This document shows positions 39,133 to 51,732 of a DNA stretch of 64,000 nucleotides, piece after piece. The notes beneath the pieces are model-generated. The model searched no databases and was not told the origin of the DNA. It saw only the letters and a list, made by a program, of their open reading frames with translations. A program made the position numbers and the translations under genes. The DNA comes from Escherichia coli (lineage in GTDB: Bacteria; Pseudomonadota; Gammaproteobacteria; Enterobacterales; Enterobacteriaceae): NCBI RefSeq assembly GCF_965641715.1, contig NZ_OZ282453.1; one strand, written 5' to 3'. The first letter of the stretch is position 1. The number at the start of each line of letters is the position of its first letter.

Positions 39133-40532
39133 ACACTCGCCAGCTACTGAGCGTCGGTATCGATATCGGCACCACCACCACCCAGGTGATTTTCTCCCAC
39201 CTGGAACTGGTTAACCGTGCGGCGGTGTCGCAGGTGCCGCGCTACGAATTCATCAAACGCGAAATTAGCTGGCAAAGCCCGGTGTTCTTTACCCCTGTCG
39301 ATAAACAGGGTGGTTTAAAAGAAGCGGAACTGAAATCGCTGATTTTAGAGCAATATCAGGCTGCGGGCATTGCGCCGGAAAGCGTTGATTCTGGTGCCAT
39401 CATCATCACCGGTGAAAGCGCGAAAACCCGCAATGCTCGCCCGGCGGTGATGGCGCTCTCTCAGTCGCTGGGCGATTTTGTCGTCGCCAGCGCCGGGCCG
39501 CACCTCGAATCCGTGATCGCCGGTCACGGTGCCGGGGCGCAAACCCTTTCTGAACAACGGCTGTGTCGGGTACTGAATATCGACATCGGCGGTGGCACCG
39601 CGAACTACGCCCTGTTCGATGCCGGAAAAATCAGCGGCACTGCCTGCCTCAACGTCGGTGGTCGCCTGCTGGAAACCGACAGCCAGGGGCGCGTGGTTTA
39701 CGCTCATAAACCGGGGCAGATGATTGTGGATGAGTGCTTCGGCGCAGGCACCGATGCCCGTTCGCTGACCGGCGCGCAGCTGGTGCAGGTTACCCGGCGG
39801 ATGGCAGAGCTGATTGTCGAAGTGATTGACGGAACGCTTTCGCCGCTCGCGCAGGCATTAATGCAAACCGGTTTGCTGCCCGCAGGTGTTACGCCCGAAA
39901 TCATTACGCTTTCTGGCGGCGTGGGCGAATGTTATCGCCACCAGCCCGCCGACCCGTTCTGTTTTGCCGATATTGGCCCGCTTCTGGCAACGGCGCTGCA
40001 TGACCATCCGCGCCTGCGTGAGATGAACGTGCAGTTTCCGGCGCAAACCGTGCGCGCCACGGTGATTGGTGCGGGTGCACATACCCTTTCGCTCTCTGGC
40101 AGCACAATCTGGCTGGAGGGCGTACAACTGCCGCTGCGCAATTTGCCGGTGGCGATCCCAATTGATGAAACGGATCTGGTGGGTGCCTGGCAACAGGCGC
40201 TGATTCAGCTGGATCTTGATCCCAAAACTGACGCGTACGTGCTGGCGCTTCCCGCCTCGCTGCCTGTGCGTTACGCCGCGGTACTGACGGTCATCAACGC
40301 GTTGGTCGATTTCGTCGCGCGTTTTCCGAATCCGAATCCCCTGCTGGTGGTGGCCGGGCAGGACTTTGGTAAAGCTCTGGGCATGTTGTTGCGCCCACAG
40401 CTACAACAACTCCCGTTGGCAGTCATTGACGAAGTGATTGTCCGCGCGGGGGACTATATCGACATTGGTACGCCTCTTTTTGGCGGATCGGTTGTGCCGG
40501 TGACGGTGAAATCACTCGCATTTCCTTCCTGA
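39129..40532 (+). CDS. eutA: ethanolamine ammonia-lyase reactivase EutA
   Basis: 467 aa MNTRQLLSVGIDIGTTTTQVIF...; stop TGA at 40530-40532 abuts the island. Confidence 0.85.
   Translation: MNTRQLLSVGIDIGTTTTQVIFSHLELVNRAAVSQVPRYEFIKREISWQSPVFFTPVDKQGGLKEAELKSLILEQYQAAGIAPESVDSGAIIITGESAKTRNARPAVMALSQSLGDFVVASAGPHLESVIAGHGAGAQTLSEQRLCRVLNIDIGGGTANYALFDAGKISGTACLNVGGRLLETDSQGRVVYAHKPGQMIVDECFGAGTDARSLTGAQLVQVTRRMAELIVEVIDGTLSPLAQALMQTGLLPAGVTPEIITLSGGVGECYRHQPADPFCFADIGPLLATALHDHPRLREMNVQFPAQTVRATVIGAGAHTLSLSGSTIWLEGVQLPLRNLPVAIPIDETDLVGAWQQALIQLDLDPKTDAYVLALPASLPVRYAAVLTVINALVDFVARFPNPNPLLVVAGQDFGKALGMLLRPQLQQLPLAVIDEVIVRAGDYIDIGTPLFGGSVVPVTVKSLAFPS
40525..40532. repeat. left junction direct repeat (att core candidate), overlaps the eutA stop codon
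   Basis: cttcctga, identical to 51725-51732; surrounding 20 bp are imperfectly similar. Confidence 0.5.
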
Positions 40533-40626
40533 ATACTGTAGTTATCAGGCGTGGCGCTGGGTGGCTGGGTGTTAGTGGGATTATATCCGGCTGTGTATCC
40601 GGTCGGGGTGATTGGTCTGTATAGCA

Positions 40627-40647
40627 GAAAACCCGGCGCGGGGCCGG
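40627..40647 (-). terminator. rho-independent terminator of the eutA-proximal cargo gene
   Basis: cccggc gcgg gccggg hairpin with a U tract on the minus-strand transcript; a near-identical copy is at 42316-42337. Confidence 0.6.
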
Positions 40648-40655
40648 GTGAACTA

Positions 40656-41216
40656 TCACTCAGGGAACAAGTTGATTTGAAGCAAACTGCCAATGTATTT
40701 ACCAGTGCTTTTAATTTTTCGCTTTGATGGCTTACACGAATTCAGGTTGACACCAGCCTGGCTAGATATTGGCTTGTATTGCCGCTCCGCCAGTACGATC
40801 AGGTCTGCCGCGTCTTTTAGCTTTCCATCGTTAGCCAGTTCCAATGCTCGATCCGCCATTTGCCCGCATTGTTGAATCAGCTTAAGTTGCGATACCTCCA
40901 GTCGCAATTGCTGGATTCGTTCTACCACTTTCGCCCTAATGCGCTTAGTTTCACGCATTCCCATTCTTAATGCCTGGTTGCCAGTAAGTGAGTAAACCTC
41001 TTTTTCTTTCCTGAAGTTTGCGGCTTTACCGTCAGCTTGGACGCGCATTTTATGCGCTTCCAAGAATTCGCCCTCCAATTCATCCCTGATCTTCGCGTTG
41101 AATCTGTCGTTCTTGAGTTCATTTAACCCTTCCGCCTTGCGGATCTGGTTGATTAACTCCAACAATTCATCACTGCGGATACGCCACTCGCTATCAACCT
41201 GTACCAAGTCAAACAT
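40656..41216 (-). CDS. hypothetical protein (island cargo); function unknown
   Basis: ORF track 40656..41309 begins at a TTG; the internal ATG at 41216 (MFDLVQVDSEWRIR...) has a GGGAG Shine-Dalgarno 6 nt upstream, giving 186 aa; basic C-terminus; own terminator. Confidence 0.55.
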   Translation of the reverse strand: MFDLVQVDSEWRIRSDELLELINQIRKAEGLNELKNDRFNAKIRDELEGEFLEAHKMRVQADGKAANFRKEKEVYSLTGNQALRMGMRETKRIRAKVVERIQQLRLEVSQLKLIQQCGQMADRALELANDGKLKDAADLIVLAERQYKPISSQAGVNLNSCKPSKRKIKSTGKYIGSLLQINLFPE

Positions 41217-41380
41217 GTTGTTGCTCCCGTTTTGCTGCCATAGGGCAACGGCTCGCCAGCCTTTATCACCTCCTTTAGTTGTTGCGATTCTTAACTGAAT
41301 GGTTATCAAAACGCTGCGTTAATATCATTGATATGTATCAAATTTGTTTTGTGACGCGACAATGCCTTGTGAATATCAAT

Positions 41381-41404
41381 AAAAAACCCAGCGCTATGGC
41401 TGGG
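41381..41404 (-). terminator. rho-independent terminator of the HTH cargo gene
   Basis: cccagc gctatg gctggg hairpin with a U tract on the minus-strand transcript. Confidence 0.55.
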
Positions 41405-41437
41405 CTTCGTTTAATGAGATGGGATTGAAAGCGGGTT

Positions 41438-42220
41438 TTATTTATCTCCCAGATTGTATTCCCAGTTGGGAAGTAAAGTTATCAGCTTGTCACCTTTCTT
41501 GCCTTTGCCGATCTGGTTGCCGTTCTCGTCTTTCTTGTGTGTGATTTCCTGGTCAACCTTAATCAATCCTCTCTCTTTGGCTTGCTCAATCAGTCGGTAG
41601 AATGCGCCGTTACTAATCGGCTTCCGGTTACCGTCGTTATCCATCGCAGTGATTTTCTGTTGCAGTCCGGCGTTATTGCCCAGGTATTCGCCACCTAACG
41701 CCGCCAGTACCTGACACAACATGCCGACACTGTATTTTTTCGGATTTGGGTTAATCCATTCTTTAGCTCCCATCTCTTTTTTGTCGTTGGGCGCTTGTTC
41801 TGCTGCTACTGCGTTCACCTTTTCATCTCCCATCTTGTTACCGCTTGCTGTGCGCTTAATTTCTTCCAGTTCTCTCTCAAGCTCACCTATACGTAATTCA
41901 CGCTCGATAATTACCCCGCGCAGCACATCATCATCACCGTGAGGGCTTGCCTGAATCCAGTTACCATTGGCGAGCGGTAGGAGGGCATAAATTCCGAACA
42001 GGTCACAAAGCGCGGCAAGTGTATTAAAATCAGGTTCCCGGCGTCCCTCCATCCAGTGGCTAACAGCGCCTTTTGTGACTGGTTCGCCTTTCTTGCTTTT
42101 AACACCCATGCGATCCAGTGCGGCGGCTATCTCTTCGCATTTAATGCCACGACCGCCAGCATAGCCCGCCGCTTTCGCGGCCCCTTTGAGGATGTCGTGA
42201 ATTTTCATTTCGTAACTCAT
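41438..42220 (-). CDS. XRE/Cro-C1-type helix-turn-helix domain protein (island cargo)
   Basis: ORF track 41438..42235; preferred start is the second ATG (MSYEMKIHD...) with a GGGAGA Shine-Dalgarno; HTH-like segment IKCEEIAAALDRMGVKSKKGEPVTKGAVSHWMEG; coiled-coil middle; Lys/Gly-rich C-terminus. Confidence 0.6.
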   Translation of the reverse strand: MSYEMKIHDILKGAAKAAGYAGGRGIKCEEIAAALDRMGVKSKKGEPVTKGAVSHWMEGRREPDFNTLAALCDLFGIYALLPLANGNWIQASPHGDDDVLRGVIIERELRIGELERELEEIKRTASGNKMGDEKVNAVAAEQAPNDKKEMGAKEWINPNPKKYSVGMLCQVLAALGGEYLGNNAGLQQKITAMDNDGNRKPISNGAFYRLIEQAKERGLIKVDQEITHKKDENGNQIGKGKKGDKLITLLPNWEYNLGDK

Positions 42221-42226
42221 AATTTT

Positions 42227-42257
42227 ATCTCCCATCTCATGAACTATGGTGGGAGAT
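42227..42257. promoter_or_regulatory. perfect 8-bp inverted repeat (atctccca N15 tgggagat) over the start region of the HTH gene
   Basis: Arms at 42227-42234 and 42250-42257; one arm contains the Shine-Dalgarno and first ATG of the minus-strand gene; tgggagat recurs at 42958-42965. Confidence 0.45.
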
Positions 42258-42315
42258 TAACACGGCGGGCCTGTGGCGGGTAAGTGTAACGGGAGAGAAT
42301 GTTGATTCAGGTCAC

Positions 42316-42337
42316 AAAAACCCGGCGCGGGGCCGGG
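42316..42337 (-). terminator. rho-independent terminator of the 158-aa cargo gene
   Basis: cccggc gcgg(g) gccggg hairpin with a U tract on the minus-strand transcript. Confidence 0.6.
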
Positions 42338-42359
42338 CTGTGTTAGTACGTCGTTGCTC

Positions 42360-42836
42360 TTAGTTCATGAGGAGATCTTTAAATTCGACGCCGTATTCAT
42401 GGGCAATGTCGCCTCTATAGTAGATGTTATCTTTCAGGATATATCCGACGTTTCTCAGGACGTGAGAACACTCTCTTACTGCTGCCTCTTTACCCCTTAA
42501 AACATCCTCCCCGCTAACTTCTTCGCCGCTGTACTTCACTGCGATGTTGTCTGCTGCACGCTCTGCTGCTTCCAGGCAATTAATCTTCACTTTTCCCCGA
42601 TTCTCCCAGGCAAAATCGCGGCCATAAATCCCCATTGCATCAACCATCTTTTGCGCAGTAGTGCGCTCATCCACCCATTCAGTGCGTTCGAACTTCTCGC
42701 CAGCAGCTACCCTTGCCGCCAGTTGTTCGTGTTGAGTCTGTACGGCCGCAGCCTCTTCTTCCCATTTGCCTTGCTCGTTGTATACGATGAAGCCAGTGAT
42801 GACTGCAGCGATTAGTAACTTGTCCAGAAAATTCAT
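42360..42836 (-). CDS. membrane-anchored hypothetical protein (island cargo)
   Basis: 158 aa; AGGAGG Shine-Dalgarno 5 nt upstream of the ATG; single N-terminal hydrophobic helix LLIAAVITGFIVY followed by a charged soluble domain. Confidence 0.6.
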   Translation of the reverse strand: MNFLDKLLIAAVITGFIVYNEQGKWEEEAAAVQTQHEQLAARVAAGEKFERTEWVDERTTAQKMVDAMGIYGRDFAWENRGKVKINCLEAAERAADNIAVKYSGEEVSGEDVLRGKEAAVRECSHVLRNVGYILKDNIYYRGDIAHEYGVEFKDLLMN

Positions 42837-43120
42837 AGCTTCCTCCTATCTGTTCAATTACCCGGCATCTCTTGCCGTTGAACGTATTAAACAAAATGCC
42901 AGTCAGGGATAAAGCGATCTGCGTCATAAAGTCCATCCCCCATCTCATTGATATTGATGGGAGATTGTTTAATTGGTCAGAAATTAAGCGTTTATGTGCG
43001 CTGCCGGGTATCCACCTCCTATCTGAAGATGGAAAGATGGGTGATATAATGTGATGGCAATTGGTGGATTGCGTGGTTTTTACAATGATAAGGGGCTGGC
43101 GTAATGCTGGCCCCTTTGTT

Positions 43121-43162
43121 TATCCGGTATCCGGTATCCGGTATAAGCGGGCGTGTATCCGG
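43121..43162. repeat. cluster of four tatccgg motifs (three tandem 7-mers plus one)
   Basis: tatccggtatccggtatccggtataagcgggcgtgtatccgg; related copies at 40584-40602 and, inverted, at 51558-51565. Confidence 0.5.
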
Positions 43163-43356
43163 TAGCGGGGATATGGGCGCGTGTACGTGAAATCTGGCAA
43201 ATTAGCAGGGTAATTGTGAGGGAATTTTTGCGTAGGAGCGTTTGTGGCTGGTAGCTCAAAATTGAGCTTTGCTTTTCATTCAATGACTTAGGTTAATTCT
43301 AGCAAAACGCTAGGATTGAATGTCCGCCAGTCTGCTTCCCCTAGCGTGGGATTTGG

Positions 43357-45723
43357 TCAACGTCTGCGCGGCTGCAAAATTCCTCCGGGTCGTTGTGATT
43401 CACGCTGCATCAGTCGCATCGCTGTGTTTTCTATGGTCTGCTGCAGCGCTTTTGAGTCTTCCTCTGTCCAGCCGTTGTTAGCCTGGATGTTGAACGTATT
43501 GTTCATCGTGATTCCGCCACCGCCTACCAGATCGCGGCCCGGTGTAACTCGTCCACCTTCACCCGGGATCATGTACTGTTTCCCGCCAGTGGATGTAAAT
43601 AGCTCCGGTACTCCGTGCTCCCCGACCCTATAAAGATTGCCACCGTTAACAGCCCCGCCGTTGTAACGAGCGCCAGCCAGTCCAAGCGTTTTGGCGGCAG
43701 CTACGCCAGTAGTAAGCCCGGTAAGTCCAGTGGCCCCAGCGCCGCCCATCGTGGCTACGTTAGCCAGGTATGCAGGAGTGGCCCACGCCGATCCTAATGC
43801 TGTAGCCTCTGCTAGTGCTTTAGCTGTTGCGGCTGCGTTTGCGGCTTCACCAATTAGCTGCTGTTTAACCCACTCAGCACCCATCTGGACAATGCCACCG
43901 ACCACAGAAGACAGGATCGTACTGCCAACGTTGGCAAGTGACTCTTGCAGCGATTGAGTACCGTTTATCAGTCCGGTAAATGCGCTGCCAGCGCCAGACG
44001 ATAACCCATCGACCATATTCCCGATGAGGCCATTTATATCGCTTTGTTTCTTCCACTGCTGCCACTGGAGATCCAGAACCCTTTGTTCATGTGCGATCTC
44101 TTCCTGGCGCAACTGCTCTTCGGTAGCCCCAAGATCTAGAAGCATTTGCTTGCGAACAGCCCATTCATTTTGGATCTTCTGTATTGGGTCAATCTGAGCT
44201 TTCTGCTTATCCTGCTCACTGACAAGACTGTCCCATTTCGCTTTCTGCTTGCGGATGGCTTCAGCTTCATCAATTGCTGCGAGTGTACTTGCTCGCTGTT
44301 TCGCGCTGATCAACCGTTTCTGCTCAGCCGCTTCCAGGTCTTCTACTGCTTTTTTCCGTTTATTGAGCGCCGCTAGTTCGGGATCGTATTTTTCCACCAA
44401 TGAAAGGCCGCTTGCTTCCTTACGTTCGCGTTCTCTTTGTGCCTGTTTGGCTGCCTGCTTAGCGGCGTTTTCTGCTTGTTTGGCTGCTCTTTCTTTCGCC
44501 CTGGTGTTCTCTTCTTCCTTGCGCTTATTCTCTTCTAACTCCTTGTTTTGTTCGCGTAATTTAACGATTTCCTCATGATGCGCCTTTGTCAGCTGGCCTT
44601 CTTTCAGTGCCCGATCTATATCAGCGTTTGCGTTGCCTTTTAGCTGTTCCTGTTTAACTTGCAGATGTTTAATCATCATTTCGCCAGTGGCAATCGCTGC
44701 CGCAGACGCTCCAGCATTCAGAGCTTCATTTAACGCTCTCTGACGTTCTTCTGCTGTTAATGCCTCGTTGCTGTATCGAAGTAGCGCATCAACGTATTTC
44801 TCCAGTTCTGCGCGGCCTGCCGCAGTTGCTGGTTCCATTGCTTTTAGGATGCTCAGAAGGCTTTGCGCTTCATAGGAAGACGGGTTTTTGCGGAACTGCG
44901 CCATAGCGTTATAAAGCGCCATAGCTTCACCCTCTGTGATTCTGTACTTAGCTCCCAGCCCTTCAATGACCGCTGATAACTGTTTGCCAAGCGCTGCACC
45001 GAATGCGCCTTCCTTGCTTAATTTGTTGAGCACTTCACTCAGTGAATTTCCTGACACGCCCAGCGCGTCGAGTTCTCTTGCTACCGTTCCCAGGTCGCCG
45101 CCTTTCATCCATCCTGCATTAGAAAATTCAGTGATAGCCCGGCCCGCTTCCCGCGTTTCTTCCTGGAGTGTTTTTAGCGCCCGCACGGCCTGCTCTTTCA
45201 TTACGGCGGCGGCAATGGCGTTGTTCTGTGTGGCTTCGTAATATGAATCACTGAAAGCGTTAACGCCCTGGGTGGATTTGCCGATCACGGCGTCGATTGA
45301 TGCTAATGCCTCCTTCATCCTTTCAGCGCTATCCGTTGCGTCGTCCATGCTGTCCGTTAGGCTGTTGGCAATCGCCCCGCCAATAGCCATCACCGCCCCC
45401 ATGACCGCACCGCCAGTACCGAAGGCAGCGGCAAGTTGTGCACCCTGCACAGCGAACGCCTGGAGCGCATTACCGCCCATCTGCAATTGAGTGGCAAGGT
45501 CTGCGATCTGGTATGATGCGTTACGGATTGCCGGGGAAAGGTTGGTTTTGACTGCGGCAGACGTTTTGGTCATCTGCGTGTTCAGTTTTTTGACGCCACT
45601 GTCAGCGCGTTTTGCGCCGCGTTCTATACTGTCAAAAGCCTGGTCCGCTTCTTGTTGTGCTGCCAGGAGTTTACCAGTACGGGCGTCGACCTCATAGTAT
45701 ATGGTCCCAAGATTCCCACTCAT
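43357..45723 (-). CDS. phage tail tape-measure protein, lambda gpH-like
   Basis: 788 aa; N-terminal Gly/Ala-rich hydrophobic segment (GGAVMGAVMAIGGAI); long Ala/Lys/Glu/Gln-rich coiled-coil centre; C-terminal Gly-rich region with NLYR and NNTFNIQ motifs resembling the lambda H C-terminus as recalled; no Walker A motif. Confidence 0.7.
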   Translation of the reverse strand: MSGNLGTIYYEVDARTGKLLAAQQEADQAFDSIERGAKRADSGVKKLNTQMTKTSAAVKTNLSPAIRNASYQIADLATQLQMGGNALQAFAVQGAQLAAAFGTGGAVMGAVMAIGGAIANSLTDSMDDATDSAERMKEALASIDAVIGKSTQGVNAFSDSYYEATQNNAIAAAVMKEQAVRALKTLQEETREAGRAITEFSNAGWMKGGDLGTVARELDALGVSGNSLSEVLNKLSKEGAFGAALGKQLSAVIEGLGAKYRITEGEAMALYNAMAQFRKNPSSYEAQSLLSILKAMEPATAAGRAELEKYVDALLRYSNEALTAEERQRALNEALNAGASAAAIATGEMMIKHLQVKQEQLKGNANADIDRALKEGQLTKAHHEEIVKLREQNKELEENKRKEEENTRAKERAAKQAENAAKQAAKQAQRERERKEASGLSLVEKYDPELAALNKRKKAVEDLEAAEQKRLISAKQRASTLAAIDEAEAIRKQKAKWDSLVSEQDKQKAQIDPIQKIQNEWAVRKQMLLDLGATEEQLRQEEIAHEQRVLDLQWQQWKKQSDINGLIGNMVDGLSSGAGSAFTGLINGTQSLQESLANVGSTILSSVVGGIVQMGAEWVKQQLIGEAANAAATAKALAEATALGSAWATPAYLANVATMGGAGATGLTGLTTGVAAAKTLGLAGARYNGGAVNGGNLYRVGEHGVPELFTSTGGKQYMIPGEGGRVTPGRDLVGGGGITMNNTFNIQANNGWTEEDSKALQQTIENTAMRLMQRESQRPGGILQPRRR

Positions 45724-46012
45724 AATATCTTTATCCGCGTTGTGCGGACACCTCCGATTATTCTTTACTCTAATAATTTCACAATGAAACAGTTTATTGC
45801 CGCTTCAGTGGCTTCGTGTTCCGGTTTGCTTCGATCAATCACAAAAAATACAGCTTAATAGAATCAATGGCTTATAAAGTTGTATTAGCTATGTTTCTTC
45901 GTCCGTGCCACTGAAAACCCAGTTTTTCCAATGGAATCAATACTGATATGTATCCATACTGTTTTTCACATAATGTACGTTATGCGCACTACGGGAAACG
46001 TACTGAATTTAT

Positions 46013-46243
46013 TTACTGGTCGCCGTTCAGTTCATGCAGAGTCTGTTCTGGCAATGAATCCAGCCAGTTTTCTGCATCCTCCCTGTAACACTCCAGGATG
46101 CAACGGTTTGTGAAGTTGATGAAAGCGGTCAGTGATTCTGCTTCGTCGTTCCTGTGCGTTCTCCTGGCGTGCTTGCGTAGTCGTTTCGCGTCTGCCAGTT
46201 GGTCATTGAGTATCTTCAGTCTGTCGGCAATATCATCGTTCAT
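46013..46243 (-). CDS. hypothetical small protein
   Basis: 76 aa; GGGAGA Shine-Dalgarno 6 nt upstream of the ATG. Confidence 0.45.
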   Translation of the reverse strand: MNDDIADRLKILNDQLADAKRLRKHARRTHRNDEAESLTAFINFTNRCILECYREDAENWLDSLPEQTLHELNGDQ

Positions 46244-46430
46244 GTCGTCTCTCCCTCGCGCGCGCGTCGTACTTGTCCGAAAATTACCCCCATAAAAGCG
46301 CCCCTCATATAGTGCAAAATCCCGGCTGACGCGGATCTCAGTGGGTTTTAGCAGTGAAAACTGACATCAAAAACGGCTCGCTAAGGTCCGCTAAGTATCC
46401 GCTATCGTTCGCTAACCCCCCGCTAACCTA

Positions 46431-46796
46431 TTAGATATCGCATCCAACGCTATTGAGCTGGCTATGTATATCGGCGCGAATTAACTTCAGGCGTTTACAA
46501 AATTCGCGTTCTTCCGAATTAAGCTCGCGGCCACCTTGTTTCGAGGCAATGAGCTTGTTGATGGTGGAAAGCGAATATTCACTCCATATACGAAGCATTT
46601 GTCGCTTCATTGGTTGCTCGCTCAATGGTGAGTTTTTCAGGTCTGACACGCGCTCTGCGACGGTTCTTGCGATGCCTTGTACCACTCGTAGTGCCAACAT
46701 GATGATTTTCTCCGGACTTGTGCTAATATAGTTCCCGAACATTGTTTCGAGACTGCTTATCCTGTTTGTCTTGTCCGATTTGTTCATTGGTCGCAT
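46431..46796 (-). CDS. hypothetical protein
   Basis: 121-aa ORF in the same orientation as, and closely spaced with, the upstream 180-aa ORF. Confidence 0.45.
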   Translation of the reverse strand: MRPMNKSDKTNRISSLETMFGNYISTSPEKIIMLALRVVQGIARTVAERVSDLKNSPLSEQPMKRQMLRIWSEYSLSTINKLIASKQGGRELNSEEREFCKRLKLIRADIHSQLNSVGCDI

Positions 46797-46838
46797 TGTT
46801 AAGTCAGCCGGGGTAATTCCCGGCTTTCTTTTATCCGA

Positions 46839-47381
46839 TCAGTACCGAATCCCTATCGCATTGAATACGCGTTTCCGTTGCTCAGCTTCAGGATCGGCGG
46901 CCATTTCTGGTTCTGGCTCCGGCATAGACGGGGCGGCATCAAAATGCTCAATTTCACGACCGAAATACGAGTTCAGGTCAATACCTGCCGAACTATCCAC
47001 TCCATCAAAATAGCGACGCTGTTCCTCGGTGAGACAGCTACCCAGACGTTCCTCAACCTGCGCCATAAACTCAGCATCCGGTGAGAAGTACTCATCCGGA
47101 GTCGGAGCACCGCTCTGTTTGTGCATCTCCATTTTCTCTGCGTTCGTTTTCAGCCCGGCAATGCGTTTCTCCAGTCCGGCGGCTTTAATAGCGTCAGCAA
47201 CGATTTGTGGGATCTGCGGTTTAATTATTTCGATAACTTCATTGCTGATTAATTTAAACTGGGCCATACGGATCGCTTTAATCTGCTTATTTAACAGTGC
47301 GCGTTCCCCTTCGTTGGCGGTTTTATCACGCTGTGCTACCAGTTCATCGCCTTTGTTTGTCAGTACATCAAATGCGTCCAT
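46839..47381 (-). CDS. hypothetical protein
   Basis: 180 aa; strong GGAGGAGG Shine-Dalgarno 7 nt upstream; acidic Pro/Glu-rich C-terminal tail; 17 nt downstream of the 108-aa ORF. Confidence 0.55.
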   Translation of the reverse strand: MDAFDVLTNKGDELVAQRDKTANEGERALLNKQIKAIRMAQFKLISNEVIEIIKPQIPQIVADAIKAAGLEKRIAGLKTNAEKMEMHKQSGAPTPDEYFSPDAEFMAQVEERLGSCLTEEQRRYFDGVDSSAGIDLNSYFGREIEHFDAAPSMPEPEPEMAADPEAEQRKRVFNAIGIRY

Positions 47382-47398
47382 TGTCTTTCCTCCTCCGA

Positions 47399-47725
47399 TT
47401 ATTTAAAAGTGCTTATTGACACGCCGAAACGACGACTTAATTCAAAAAGGAGTCGCGCCTTTGCAGTGCCTTCCATGTCTTCCGGCATTTCAGACTGAAG
47501 TTTATCAGCTACTTCATCAACAAGTGGCCGAACCGTTTCCACGAACTTGTCCGCAATATAATCAGCAGAACGCATCACTTTTTCCTGGAATTCCTCACGG
47601 CGTACCTGGGCGGCTGATTTAGGGGCTGTCGTGCGCTGAAAATAACTGTCTAATGAATGCATGGCATCTGCTCCTTTTACTTTGATTGCTGTTATTTCTT
47701 TAATTGTGTTTGCTTTGATTTTCAT
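47399..47725 (-). CDS. hypothetical protein
   Basis: 108-aa ORF starting 76 nt downstream of the AlpA-like gene. Confidence 0.5.
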   Translation of the reverse strand: MKIKANTIKEITAIKVKGADAMHSLDSYFQRTTAPKSAAQVRREEFQEKVMRSADYIADKFVETVRPLVDEVADKLQSEMPEDMEGTAKARLLFELSRRFGVSISTFK

Positions 47726-47801
47726 GCTGCCTATTCCTTCAGAAATTGCGGTAGTTTGCTTTTTAAATCAATAAGTTATTTGATAATCTCAGTAGCTGTT
47801 T

Positions 47802-47993
47802 TCATTGGTGGCGAGCGCCTTTGTTTTTATAGAATTCCAAAATCTCAGATCGGATAAACTTAATTCTTGAGCCAATCGGACTGACCGGGACGGGCCAGCC
47901 TTTAATCTTGTTCATCCACCGGAATATTGTCCGACGGGTAACGCCGAATAAAGCTGCTACCTCGTTAACCGTCATTAATTCGCTATCATTCAT
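47802..47993 (-). CDS. excisionase / AlpA-family DNA-binding protein
   Basis: 63 aa; HTH MTVNEVAALFGVTRRTIFRWM typical of excisionase-family domains; GAGGTGA Shine-Dalgarno. Confidence 0.7.
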   Translation of the reverse strand: MNDSELMTVNEVAALFGVTRRTIFRWMNKIKGWPVPVSPIGSRIKFIRSEILEFYKNKGARHQ

Positions 47994-48003
47994 GTTCTCA
48001 CCT

Positions 48004-48046
48004 CAAAAAGTAGCGGTGAGGAAAATATGGAGAAAACCCTCACCGC
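48004..48046 (-). promoter_or_regulatory. terminator-like hairpin in the leader of the AlpA-like gene (candidate attenuator)
   Basis: Minus-strand RNA reads GCGGUGAGG, 16-nt loop, CCUCACCGC, UACUUUUU, then GAGGUGAGAAC AUG; the 3' arm could alternatively pair with the Shine-Dalgarno. Confidence 0.45.
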
Positions 48047-48220
48047 GCCCTGAATGAAATTAAAGACCAACATTACTGTTGATACTTATTATTATATTCC
48101 TCCTGTCCCTGTTTCACATCTTTTACCATATAGTGAAAGGGGATATTCTGTAATGTTTACAAAACTTTTAATTAGCAAAAAATAATTGCGCATCTCACGT
48201 AATGCAGGGATAATATTACT

Positions 48221-48306
48221 CAAGGGCTGGTTGCCCTTACTCAAAATGTGATCTATAACTACAACGATCTATTTCACTTCCCCGCTTTCTCCGGCGGGAT
48301 TTTTTT
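48221..48306 (+). ncRNA. candidate small RNA (~86 nt), divergent from the AlpA-like operon
   Basis: Promoter-like TTGCGC (48186-48191), 17-bp spacer, GATAAT (48209-48214); internal hairpin agggctggttgccct; terminator cccgc tttctccg gcggg plus T7 at 48281-48306; no ORF. Confidence 0.4.
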
Positions 48307-49115
48307 GCCTGCAATCTGGCACCATTGCGCACATTAAAATTAGATGCCATTTAAAAGCGATATAACGCGTTCTGCCGGGCTTAATTTTGGCTATCCACTT
48401 GGAAGGGTAAGCCTGTTTTGATTCGTCTGGCGTGGAATGGTGCGGCGGTAATATCAGATCTCAGCGTTCTGCGTGGTGGGATGAAATAGCCTGGCAGGAT
48501 TTGCGTGTGGTTTGCTCTCCCAAAAAATGGGGTAATGGCGCTGGCTGGATGGCAGGACTCCGCGCTGATTACTGGATGGCTGAAAATTTAATGAAATCGC
48601 ATCAATTTTAATGCGTCTAAATCGCTCTGTGGCGACGTGAAGTTTTCAGGTAAGCAAGTGTAGCTGTGTGGTGTGTTCATCGCGTTACTGGCACCATTCC
48701 GTTCGAATTTGGCGCTATCAGGATGGTTTGCGGTGGTCGGCGGCGGGGATAAACTTGCTTGAGTGGTCACCTCAGCCTGCTGTGCGTCGTGTGATGGTAC
48801 TGTCTGCACCTGGCTATACGCTGCTTTGCTGCTGTTTCCTGTCTGGTCTGTATACGCGATAAAACCCATCGGCTTTACAGTGAGTGAGTTTTTTGCGCTT
48901 TGCTTTCCATTCGGTTTGCTTACTGCTGCTGTGTGTCTGTGCGGTAGCTCAGAAAGCTGTCGATGATAACCATCACTGCCAGACCGTCTTTTGAGCTGGC
49001 GATTGCTCGAAGTCTTCCGAAGGTCCGCTGGGCTTGTTGCTTGTTTGTGTTCTTTTAAAATGCGCGCCTCTTACTTTCTCTTAAAAAGAAAAAAGGAATA
49101 TACAGATCTCATACT

Positions 49116-49275
49116 ATGTGTGTCCCAAATGTCACACGTCATGGCCTGACCTGTATCCCAAATGTCACACGTCACCCTCTGACCTGTATCCCAAATGTCA
49201 CACGTACCTGTGTCCCAAATGTCACACGTCTATTGTTAATTAATTGTTGACCTGTGTCTCAAATGTCACACGTCT
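49116..49275. repeat. iteron array: five direct repeats of about 22 bp
   Basis: Copies start at 49116, 49149, 49182, 49206, 49250 (spacings 33, 33, 24, 44 bp); core cccaaatgtcacacgt; AT-rich ttgttaattaattgttga between copies 4 and 5. Confidence 0.7.
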
Positions 49276-49292
49276 GTTGATGGTTTAAGTAA

Positions 49293-49319
49293 TAAAAAGG
49301 GCCACCATTTTAGGTGACC
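49293..49319 (-). terminator. rho-independent terminator of the wHTH gene
   Basis: gggccacc atttta ggtgaccc hairpin (one G-U pair) with a U tract on the minus-strand transcript. Confidence 0.5.
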
Positions 49320-49338
49320 CATTGATGCGTTTTAGTCG

Positions 49339-50103
49339 TTATCTTGCGTTCTCGACCTGAAAAAGCATTCTGTATTTTCTTGCGTGCTGACCAATAACAT
49401 ATTCCCCGTATGGCTCAATGAGTCCTAACTCAACCAGGATTTTCATCTGGCGAATTACGGTGCGGCGATTCATGCCCCATTCATCAGCTATTTTTGCCTG
49501 GCAAACTTCAGATACATAAGATCCATCATTCTGCTTTCTTGCTGCTGATGCAATGCTGGATAATACGCTCCAGGCTGTAGCTTTAGCTTTATTCTCGCAA
49601 CCACTTCTGACAAATGCCTTACGTGCCGCACCCAAACAGACATAACTGCAATAAATTCCTTTTTCTTCCGTTTGGTATTGTGTCTCTTTATCCTGCATGG
49701 CTTCCGGTTCTTCCGGCGCTTCCTGCTGTGGTGCTGTCTGCGAAGTTTTAGCGGCCATACTGCGTAGCTCGTTCACGATATCAGTAGCTGATTTCTTCTC
49801 GCTTTTAGTTTCCTGCGTGACTGATAAATACTCACCTTGTAACGCCAGGAAGTCAGCGCGGGCGTTTGCCTGGCTTTGTTCTGGTGATTCAGGTTCTGCA
49901 TCGGCAGGTGATGAAATCGGTGATACACGCGCCCAGCCTGTTTTGGCGTTGCATTCCCAGCGATAACCATTAAAGCGGATATCATTCAGGCCATCATCAA
50001 TGGCGCTCCGTACTTCTTCCGGGATCGCGTCGATTTTCTGAAGGCTGTGTTTACCGAGTGATTCGCCTTGCCGTGGGGCGTAGGCGGTTGGTAAAATATT
50101 CAT
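49339..50103 (-). CDS. winged-helix DNA-binding protein, putative replication initiator or repressor
   Basis: 254 aa; AAGGAGA Shine-Dalgarno; acidic low-complexity middle; C-terminal HTH-like EVCQAKIADEWGMNRRTVIRQMKILVELGLIE; iteron array immediately downstream. Confidence 0.5.
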   Translation of the reverse strand: MNILPTAYAPRQGESLGKHSLQKIDAIPEEVRSAIDDGLNDIRFNGYRWECNAKTGWARVSPISSPADAEPESPEQSQANARADFLALQGEYLSVTQETKSEKKSATDIVNELRSMAAKTSQTAPQQEAPEEPEAMQDKETQYQTEEKGIYCSYVCLGAARKAFVRSGCENKAKATAWSVLSSIASAARKQNDGSYVSEVCQAKIADEWGMNRRTVIRQMKILVELGLIEPYGEYVIGQHARKYRMLFQVENAR

Positions 50104-50315
50104 GTGGGATTTCTCCTTTTTACTTGTTTCCCATATCGCCCGGATTGGTTAGCGGCCTTCCGGGCTTTTTGTTGCGTTGATCCTATTTTCGATCCCCGGA
50201 TTTTTTATTACAAACTTGGCTTAATCATTGATTTTATTGGTATAGCTGTATAAAAGGATAACAGGATAAAAGGGTGATAGATTGTGTAACCTGTTAACCT
50301 TTTATACCAGTAAGG

Positions 50316-50342
50316 CGAAAGAAAAGCCGGACGAATCCGGCC
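50316..50342 (-). terminator. rho-independent terminator after the integrase gene
   Basis: gccgga cgaa tccggc hairpin with a U-rich tract, 8 nt past the integrase stop. Confidence 0.5.
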
Positions 50343-50349
50343 TTATAGT

Positions 50350-51555
50350 TCACGGCTCCAGCGGATTACCGCCACCAGCCAATATCTGGTCGATGGCGTC
50401 GCTGTAGTCCTGCATCATGGCCCGCCGTTGCTTCAGATAGGCCGCCTGGTTATAAACGCCGCGCACACCTTTCGGAACGTGGGCCAGTTGGATTTCGATC
50501 CAGTCTGGTGAGTATCTGCCGTACTCGTTAAGTGCGGTTGAAAAGGTGGTTCGCCAGCCGTGACCAGTGGCTATCGACTTGTATCCGATACGCTCCAGGG
50601 CTTTAAGGATGGCACTGGCTGAAAGTGGCTTATCCATGAATCGACCAGGGAACACAAAAGCACTGTATCCGCTGCGGGTAAACTGGTCCTGTAATAGCTC
50701 GACCGCCTGCCGGGATAGCGGGACCACATGCGGGCGGCGGGCCTTCATGACTTCAGCGGGTAGGGTGATGGTTGCCGATTCCAGATCTACCCACTCCCAG
50801 CGCATTAAACGCAGTTCTGCGGTCCTTAGGGCGCTTAATATAAGCAAACGTATTGCCGTCTGAATCTGAACGCTCCCGGCTCTCTCAAGGGCTTTGTAGA
50901 AGGCCGGGATTTCGTTAATTTGTATCCATGCGTTATGGCCTGGGCGTCGGGCTTTCAATGCCGTGTCCAGATCTGCAACCGGATTTCGGTTAACCAGTTC
51001 AGTGATAACGGCAAATTTGAAGATTTCCCCTATACGCTGCCGTAATTTTCGGGCCTGTTCCGGCGCGGTGCGCTCTTTCTTCTGAAGCAATGCCAGCACG
51101 TCACGGGCCGTTATATCGACAATCGACCGCTTGCCAAGTACCGGATAAACATCTTTCTCCAGTGCCGATCTAACTTGTTTCGTGTAAGACTCAGACCAAC
51201 CGCTCACTCTGGTAGCAAACCAGTCTTCCGCTACCGTCTTAAAACTTGCCGCCATGTTGAGCGCATCAATGGCTTTCTCCTTGCGCGCTTCTTCCATTGG
51301 GTCAATTCCCTGGGCGATGAGTAAACGGCTCTCTGTGGCGCGTTTACGTGCTTCCTTCAAGGTAATCAGCGGATATACCCCAATAGCCTGTAACCGCTCT
51401 TTCTTGTCTATCCAGTACCGGAATCGCCAGTATTTGCTGCCATTGGGATGTACCAGCAAGAACAGGCCAGGTGTCTGTGAATCGGTGAGTTTGTAGGGCT
51501 TGTCCTTCGGCTGGGCGGCCTCTATGCCCTTTGCTGTCAGTGGTGTCTTGCTCAA
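50350..51555 (-). CDS. P4-type tyrosine integrase (site-specific recombinase), intZ-like
   Basis: 401 aa; N-terminal arm-binding domain (PYKLTDSQTPGLFLLVHPNGSKYWRFRY); C-terminal catalytic region with the HGWRTTFSTALNE and RGVYNQAAY motifs. Confidence 0.85.
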   Translation of the reverse strand: MSKTPLTAKGIEAAQPKDKPYKLTDSQTPGLFLLVHPNGSKYWRFRYWIDKKERLQAIGVYPLITLKEARKRATESRLLIAQGIDPMEEARKEKAIDALNMAASFKTVAEDWFATRVSGWSESYTKQVRSALEKDVYPVLGKRSIVDITARDVLALLQKKERTAPEQARKLRQRIGEIFKFAVITELVNRNPVADLDTALKARRPGHNAWIQINEIPAFYKALERAGSVQIQTAIRLLILSALRTAELRLMRWEWVDLESATITLPAEVMKARRPHVVPLSRQAVELLQDQFTRSGYSAFVFPGRFMDKPLSASAILKALERIGYKSIATGHGWRTTFSTALNEYGRYSPDWIEIQLAHVPKGVRGVYNQAAYLKQRRAMMQDYSDAIDQILAGGGNPLEP

Positions 51556-51724
51556 AACCGGATACCTCGATCTAACGACTCGATAACCCCGCTCATGTAT
51601 CCGTCGCGTTCGGTTGCGTTCGGCAGGATAAGTAACGGGCGTATTAAGTGGAACACCTTACAGGACAAGGGATAACGATGAAATAGAATTGTTCGAATGC
51701 TGTGAAAAATGTTACTCATCACTT

Positions 51725-51732
51725 CTTCCTGA
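51725..51732. repeat. right junction direct repeat (att core candidate), immediately 5' of the eutB ribosome-binding site
   Basis: cttcctga, identical to 40525-40532; followed by gggaacgactt ATG (eutB). Confidence 0.5.

Follow-up and report, generated by a model that had tools for sequence, protein, structure and literature searches.

What do four short genes of no recognised family do between an AlpA-like gene and a gene for a phage tape-measure protein (TMP)? The question arises in an island inserted in the window, the whole 64,000-nucleotide stretch of Escherichia coli DNA analysed here (contig NZ_OZ282453.1). The original prediction had proposed that the four minus-strand ORFs, here called A, B, C and D in their order from the AlpA-like gene, may serve by their position to manipulate a helper phage, as in phage satellites, or may constitute a small cassette for defence or anti-defence. 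Here we examine whether the ORFs are genes, what kind of island carries them, how they vary among related islands, and which of several functions best accounts for them.

Results

Coding status and start sites

The four ORFs lie where the original prediction had placed them, with intergenic gaps of 17, 42 and 187 nt, with the HTH_17/AlpA-like gene on one side and the 788-aa TMP gene on the other (Table 1), and the Shine-Dalgarno (SD) sequences upstream of them were found again. ORF length alone does not raise them above chance, because the opposite strand also holds ORFs of 125, 92 and 80 aa. What does so is conservation, seen in syntenic homologues and in dN/dS ratios, with SD sequences also present. 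Intact syntenic homologues of the four ORFs were found at 40-57% amino-acid identity, and by this measure A to D are genuine protein-coding genes.

Two of the predicted sizes, those of B and D, stood, while C and A had been over-called. In every homologue and in RefSeq, C begins at residue 33 (ATG 46700, with GGAG 9 nt upstream), which makes C 89 aa long and widens the B-C gap to 138 nt. Similarly, all five syntenic homologues of A that were inspected begin at the equivalent of Met22 (with AAGGAG upstream of the ATG), and the A-type gene of one related island (L012) has a stop codon six codons upstream of its start, so that A is probably 87 aa long.

Table 1. Features of the island, in order along the window
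Feature	Position	Strand	Remarks
Whole island, 11.2 kb	40533..51732		Between eutA and eutB
Anti-repressor-like protein	40656..41309	-	Distal gene
YffS-like HTH protein p265	41438..42235	-	Distal gene
YffR-like protein p158	42360..42836	-	N-terminal hydrophobic stretch
Tape-measure protein gene, 788 aa	43357..45723	-	phrog_1538, E = 8e-112
TMP leader, conserved, non-coding	45724..45992	-	Ends in SD GGAGG, hairpin (GTCCGC..GCGGAT) and ATG
ORF D	46013..46243	-	76 aa; SD GAGGGAG
terS upstream relic and first codons	46244..46430	-	Holds (T)TAGCG x5 array
ORF C	46431..46700	-	89 aa; the earlier 121-aa call extends to 46796
GC-rich hairpin in B-C spacer	46806..46825		Terminator-like scan: 8-bp stem, T-run on + strand side
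ORF B	46839..47381	-	180 aa; strong SD GGAGGAGG
ORF A	47399..47725	-	108 aa called, probably 87 aa from ATG 47662
AlpA-like/excisionase-type HTH_17 gene, 63 aa	47802..47993	-	Heads co-oriented gene string
Five iterons TGTRTCYCAAATGTCACACGT	49119..49285		Tandem Repeats Finder and repeat finder; adjoin replication-initiator-like gene
p254, 254-aa replication-initiator-like protein	49339..50103	-	C-terminal winged-HTH
IntZ-type tyrosine integrase	50350..51555	-	92% identical to K-12 IntZ

An island related to CPZ-55

The island is flanked by an 8-bp duplication, CTTCCTGA, at 40525-40532 and 51725-51732, and its integrase is 95-97% identical to those of other eut-site islands. The AlpA-like protein scores above the Pfam cut-off for HTH_17 (E = 7e-9) and below that for Phage_AlpA (14.7 against 21 bits), matches phrog_66, 'excisionase and transcriptional regulator' (E = 2e-9), and is encoded by a gene with a dN/dS of 0.06-0.13. 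For p254, HTH_36 falls just under the Pfam cut-off, matches to replication initiators are weak, and the protein is weakly like K-12 YffL. Neither a helicase nor a primase was found in the island with Pfam, PHROG or NCBIfam. About 1.1 kb at 47994-49118 is gene-poor, and relatives have pseudogenes there. The closest phage relatives of the island TMP are those of the mEp021-group coliphages, which are ~55-60% identical in patches and 781 aa long, against 788 aa in the island.

The eutA-eutB site and the 8-bp duplication are common to the window island and K-12 CPZ-55, for which both have been described (PMC6379469). The likeness extends to C and YffM (E = 1e-11), p158 and YffR (6.5e-15), p265 and YffS (1.5e-120), and p254 and YffL (1.6e-6). 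By site and gene content, the window carries a more complete relative of K-12 CPZ-55. In the K-12 element there is no AlpA-like gene, A, B, D or TMP gene, and YffM has lost part of its N-terminus; conversely, it keeps yffN, yffO (TerS-like) and yffP, all lost from the window, in which no homologue of yffN, yffO, yffP or yffQ was found. In keeping with a satellite, some excision of K-12 CPZ-55 persists, although its frequency is low (PMC3105296). It was silent in mobilome sequencing, an observation that weighs against a satellite function. The literature treats CPZ-55 solely as a cryptic prophage, and we found no paper tying it or A to D to satellites or tape-measure proteins.

Gene order and co-occurrence in related islands

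One gene order, AlpA-like, A-type, B-type, (~111 aa), C-type, YffN-type, TerS (PF20901), YffP-type and often TMP, recurs in eut-site islands, in islands at another E. coli location (ychJ/rssA) and on contigs of unknown source. Strains 1504D004 and RM13752, for example, have complete islands with alpA, A, B, one further gene, C, yffN, terS, yffP and TMP. The small terminase of these relatives (YffO-type) scores above the Pfam cut-off for Sf6_terminase (PF20901). In L005, L006, L007, L008, L010, L012 and L013 an A-type protein stands in the slot of A. The cargo around A, B and C varies and includes AIPR, HNH, KilA-N, YafO and PPIase genes. Judged by this synteny, the A-, B- and C-type genes are a fixed backbone of the AlpA-headed string and not cargo. 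D fills the slot held by yffN-terS-yffP in complete relatives. Among eut-site islands, A-B-C-D without terS is the arrangement met most often.

The original prediction had assumed a link between the four ORFs and the TMP gene, against which the co-occurrence check argues: among complete E. coli genomes A-B is found in 216 and D in 209 (with at least 80% query coverage in 171 and 207 of these, respectively), while the TMP leader is found in only 79. C-type genes likewise occur in islands that have no TMP gene. Many relatives are visibly decayed, with deletions, IS insertions, pseudogenes and D-TMP fusions. The four frames are intact in the window and mostly so in the closely inspected relatives, among which EC291 has a split A.

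Non-coding elements

The hairpin sequence in the B-C spacer is invariant across related islands. Between C and D, the window retains of terS the upstream region and about four codons only. In PEC145 a terS-like CDS is directly preceded by a stretch of 82% identity, which takes in the CDS start, ATGGGGGG. The (T)TAGCG array of this relic occupies 46379-46426 with spacings of ~10-11 bp. The relic region is present in only 3 of 5426 genomes and absent from L004 and L015-17. The TMP leader is 82-95% identical across its 79 genomes, is annotated in none of them, and is kept regardless of whether its upstream neighbour is D, YffP or AIPR cargo. As Rfam gave no match for the leader or the island, and alifold analysis of the leader found almost no covariation, no RNA gene is claimed.

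Family searches

The claim that A to D belong to no known family holds in profile, PDB-sequence, phage-genome and defence-model searches. Profile scans of Pfam, PHROGs, NCBIfam and PADLOC, in which six neighbouring proteins were scanned too, returned nothing significant for the four. Their best E-values against PHROGs were 0.018 or weaker, and no DNA-binding or replication domain matched any of them in Pfam, PHROG or NCBIfam. In PADLOC-DB v2, A, B and D had no match and C only a chance-level one to Cas8b (E = 0.017). Searches of the PDB with profiles of C and B and with the sequences of D and A gave chance or designed-helix matches only, and no homology or fold match ties any of the four to packaging or assembly.

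An ordinary prophage origin, which the original prediction had named as the finding that would speak against it, did not emerge: A to D have no phage-genome homologue in PHROGs or, by tblastn with a concatenated A-D query, in 50,697 phage records. The concatenated query found only 43 matches among 1.84 billion representative proteins. IMG/VR, scanned with B and with C, held no relatives of either. The A- and B-type proteins of L006 were also without a phage homologue, and the TerS HTH region was the sole match of that island's proteins to phages. Relatives of A to D are nearly restricted to E. coli; a C-profile scan of one genome per species found a single C-type gene, in a Citrobacter MAG.

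Properties of the individual proteins

A is a helical protein with 'SLDSYF' near its N-terminus. Because close relatives of A and B differ by 0-1 synonymous changes, which makes their dN/dS uninformative, distant pairs were used; for A these gave a dN of 0.39 with saturated dS, and for B a dN/dS of ~0.16 against L007. The near-invariance of A-B among close relatives may stem only from a recent sweep or recombination.

The AF2 model of B has helices at 3-90, with the remainder at low confidence. The model has a low pTM, and Foldseek found nothing in the PDB at E <= 1e-3. The tail, which is probably disordered according to the model, carries three x-Y-F motifs (EYF, RYFDG and SYF) followed by a C-terminal 'RVFNAIGIRY'. 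No Pfam domain occurs in any of the 382 clusters of the B family, and the names listed for them all read 'hypothetical'. Its members have 3-5 acidic x-Y-F motifs in the tail, with YF motifs enriched in each (p < 0.001).

C is a YffM-family protein modelled by AF2 as a three-helix bundle (pLDDT 93.7; helices 2-22, 29-55 and 62-83). Foldseek searches of the PDB and BFVD found nothing at E <= 1e-3 and generic fold matches only; a resemblance to Habc/GAT-like bundles was dropped as uninformative for want of a match at that threshold. C is hypervariable: its alleles at different loci share only 25-47% identity, even beside genes that are 92% identical, and C has been exchanged along with the terS upstream region. 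With a dN/dS of ~0.12, this divergence is, as far as substitution patterns tell, ancient allelic variation and not positive selection.

D is a charged helical protein confined to the terS-less subfamily, with at least three allele classes among its 209 genomes, altered C-termini in some variants and fusion to the TMP in others. Its dN/dS of 0.33-0.74 indicates weak constraint. The idea that D derives from a piece of yffP or terS was rejected, as no similarity to either was found; only the non-coding TMP leader is common to D-bearing and terS-type islands.

Discussion

The window island is best read, from its gene content, as a phage satellite. It combines an IntZ-type integrase, a wHTH initiator-like gene with five iterons, an AlpA-like gene and a TMP gene. 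The satellite-like context proposed in the original prediction was thus borne out, while helper manipulation itself we infer from position only. The window copy of the island is probably decaying.

Among known satellites, the PICIs, including the SaPIs, are like the island in length (~11 kb), in a terminal integrase, in iterons beside a replication initiator and in having cargo slots, and the AlpA-like gene may correspond to their AlpA-type regulator. In SaPIs and PICIs, small island-specific interference genes stand ahead of terS (PMC6092414); in SaPIs and Gram-negative PICIs these interference and capsid-remodelling genes include Ppi, CpmA/B, Pti and Rpp. Similarly, in the relatives of the window island small island-specific genes without a family precede the small-terminase gene. 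The positional parallel to SaPI operon I is an analogy only. However, we found no PICI protein that the island's proteins resemble in sequence or fold, and the replication module of the window lies upstream of alpA and has no primase, which differs from the pri-rep module and ori that Gram-negative PICIs have downstream of alpA. The window also has a full-length TMP gene, whereas Gram-negative PICIs are expected to have no phage structural genes other than terS or those for capsid remodelling. Unlike terS-encoding (pac-type) satellites, and unlike its own relatives, the window island has no small-terminase gene of its own.

The TMP gene invites comparison with the PLE satellites of Vibrio cholerae, which encode their own TMP, TAC and baseplate hub and build chimeric tails; their Rta protein has 80 aa and no homologues (PMC11838301). 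Like a PLE, the island is an integrative element with a TMP diverged from that of its putative helper and with homologue-free small proteins nearby. It differs in that the putative helper would be a siphovirus and not a myovirus, in that no island protein matches a TAC or baseplate hub in Pfam or PHROG, and in that the island TMP is about as long as its counterparts in the mEp021 group. The mycobacterial EPIP satellites bring TerS and a TMP together in one small element, as the relatives of the window island do, but, compared by description, they have a serine integrase, capsid and adaptor genes and an unrelated host clade. With P4-like/CP4-57-type elements the island shares a tyrosine integrase, an AlpA-like HTH and variable cargo slots, yet no primase-helicase, Sid, Psu or Delta match was found in ten island proteins (Pfam, PHROG and NCBIfam), and its replication-like gene is of another kind.

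Given this context, the reading that we favour, though tentatively and as something short of probable, is that A, B and C are satellite-specific adaptor or interference proteins for the exploitation of a helper. Under it, A to D would be promoter-proximal genes of the AlpA-headed string in an integrative island of the IntZ/CPZ-55 family, and A, B and C would be small, helical, island-specific factors that exploit a helper siphovirus at DNA packaging or virion assembly. B might act as a multivalent docking protein whose acidic x-Y-F motifs could bind an oligomeric partner, and C as an allele-specific specificity subunit that travels with the small-terminase module. D would be a subfamily-specific small protein, and its role is the least supported. 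We infer the satellite lifestyle, the exploitation of a helper and each of these molecular roles. The absence of terS and yffP from the window copy weighs against this reading, as do the visible decay of many relatives and the weak constraint on D.

An unlikely but credible alternative is that A to D are the island's own regulatory or replication-accessory proteins and not directed at a helper. They might, for example, assist the AlpA-like excisionase/activator as cofactors, relieve repression, or bring host replication proteins to the iteron origin. The four genes directly follow the AlpA-like gene, and the island, with an initiator-like gene and iterons but neither helicase nor primase, must draw on host factors. 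The acidic aromatic motifs of B resemble in style the short acidic-aromatic tails that recruit replication proteins, and in relatives some B-family motifs lie near the C-terminus (...PDIDGYFN). In Gram-negative PICIs, replication genes come after alpA (PMC6092414); here, however, the replication-like module lies upstream of alpA. Also against this alternative, none of the four proteins matches a DNA-binding or replication domain, and in the complete relatives examined C-type genes stand just upstream of the yffN/terS module.

It is rather less likely that A to D in the window are leftovers without current function, in a grounded remnant like K-12 CPZ-55. The reduction of terS to its relic, the loss of yffP, the gene-poor stretch next to the AlpA-like gene, the many deletions, IS insertions and disrupted copies among relatives, and a dN/dS of D that reaches 0.7 all point that way. 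However, the four frames are intact here and mostly so in relatives, apart from the split A of EC291, most genomes with A-B or D cover the query to at least 80%, and purifying selection has acted over deep divergence. The terS-less A-B-C-D form is, moreover, the commonest at the eut site.

The defence or anti-defence cassette of the original prediction now appears improbable. Such a cassette could block the tail assembly of a competing phage as Rta does, or inhibit host immunity. The islands do carry defence-type cargo (AIPR, the YafO toxin and HNH), and C is hypervariable, as proteins in an arms race often are. PLE11 Rta, a protein of 80 aa that targets the helper TMP, is itself without homologues (PMC11838301), so missing homology does not exclude a defence function. 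This reading is nevertheless weakened because A, B and C keep their order while the defence-type genes (AIPR, YafO, HNH and KilA-N) sit in other, variable slots. In addition, PADLOC gave no match, A-B is nearly invariant rather than diversifying, and the dN/dS of C shows no positive selection.

Most improbable of all is that one or more of the four, especially D, is a tail-assembly chaperone or handling factor for the island TMP: D does stand immediately upstream of the TMP leader in the window's subfamily and PLE satellite TMPs are accompanied by a TAC, but no TAC family matched (Pfam and PHROG), C and D have no XXXYYYZ heptamer and their shifted frames close within 0-14 codons, D and TMP are 290 nt apart across the conserved non-coding leader (and separated by 2.4 kb of cargo in L004), and D (209 genomes) far outnumbers the leader (79), with C-type genes also in TMP-less islands. 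A chaperone of the gpG/gpGT type was rejected, there being no -1 frameshift architecture and no co-occurrence with the TMP.

The adaptor or interference reading can be carried further, to a version that is unlikely as a whole but deserves to be stated: the IntZ/CPZ-55 islands would be unrecognised satellites of E. coli with their own TerS and chimeric tails, in which A, B and C form the hijack module. In such islands the Sf6-type small terminase would redirect packaging, the island TMP would build chimeric siphovirus tails, the 'YF-repeat' of B would dock an oligomeric helper assembly or terminase component, and the three-helix bundle C, with its hypervariable alleles, would serve as the subunit that sets specificity for the type of helper.

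If this is wrong, A to D remain Escherichia ORFans of narrow distribution, in an island under decay, and are of local interest only. If it is true, the familiar K-12 'cryptic prophage' is a stump left by a satellite family with its own small terminase and TMP, a combination so far reported only in the mycobacterial satellite class of the EPIPs; a satellite-encoded TMP has been shown experimentally only in the Vibrio PLEs, in 2025. A, B and C would then give access, through new and experimentally tractable small proteins, to the takeover of virion assembly by satellites, E. coli being the best available genetic system for this, with the YF-repeat tail of B as a direct experimental handle.

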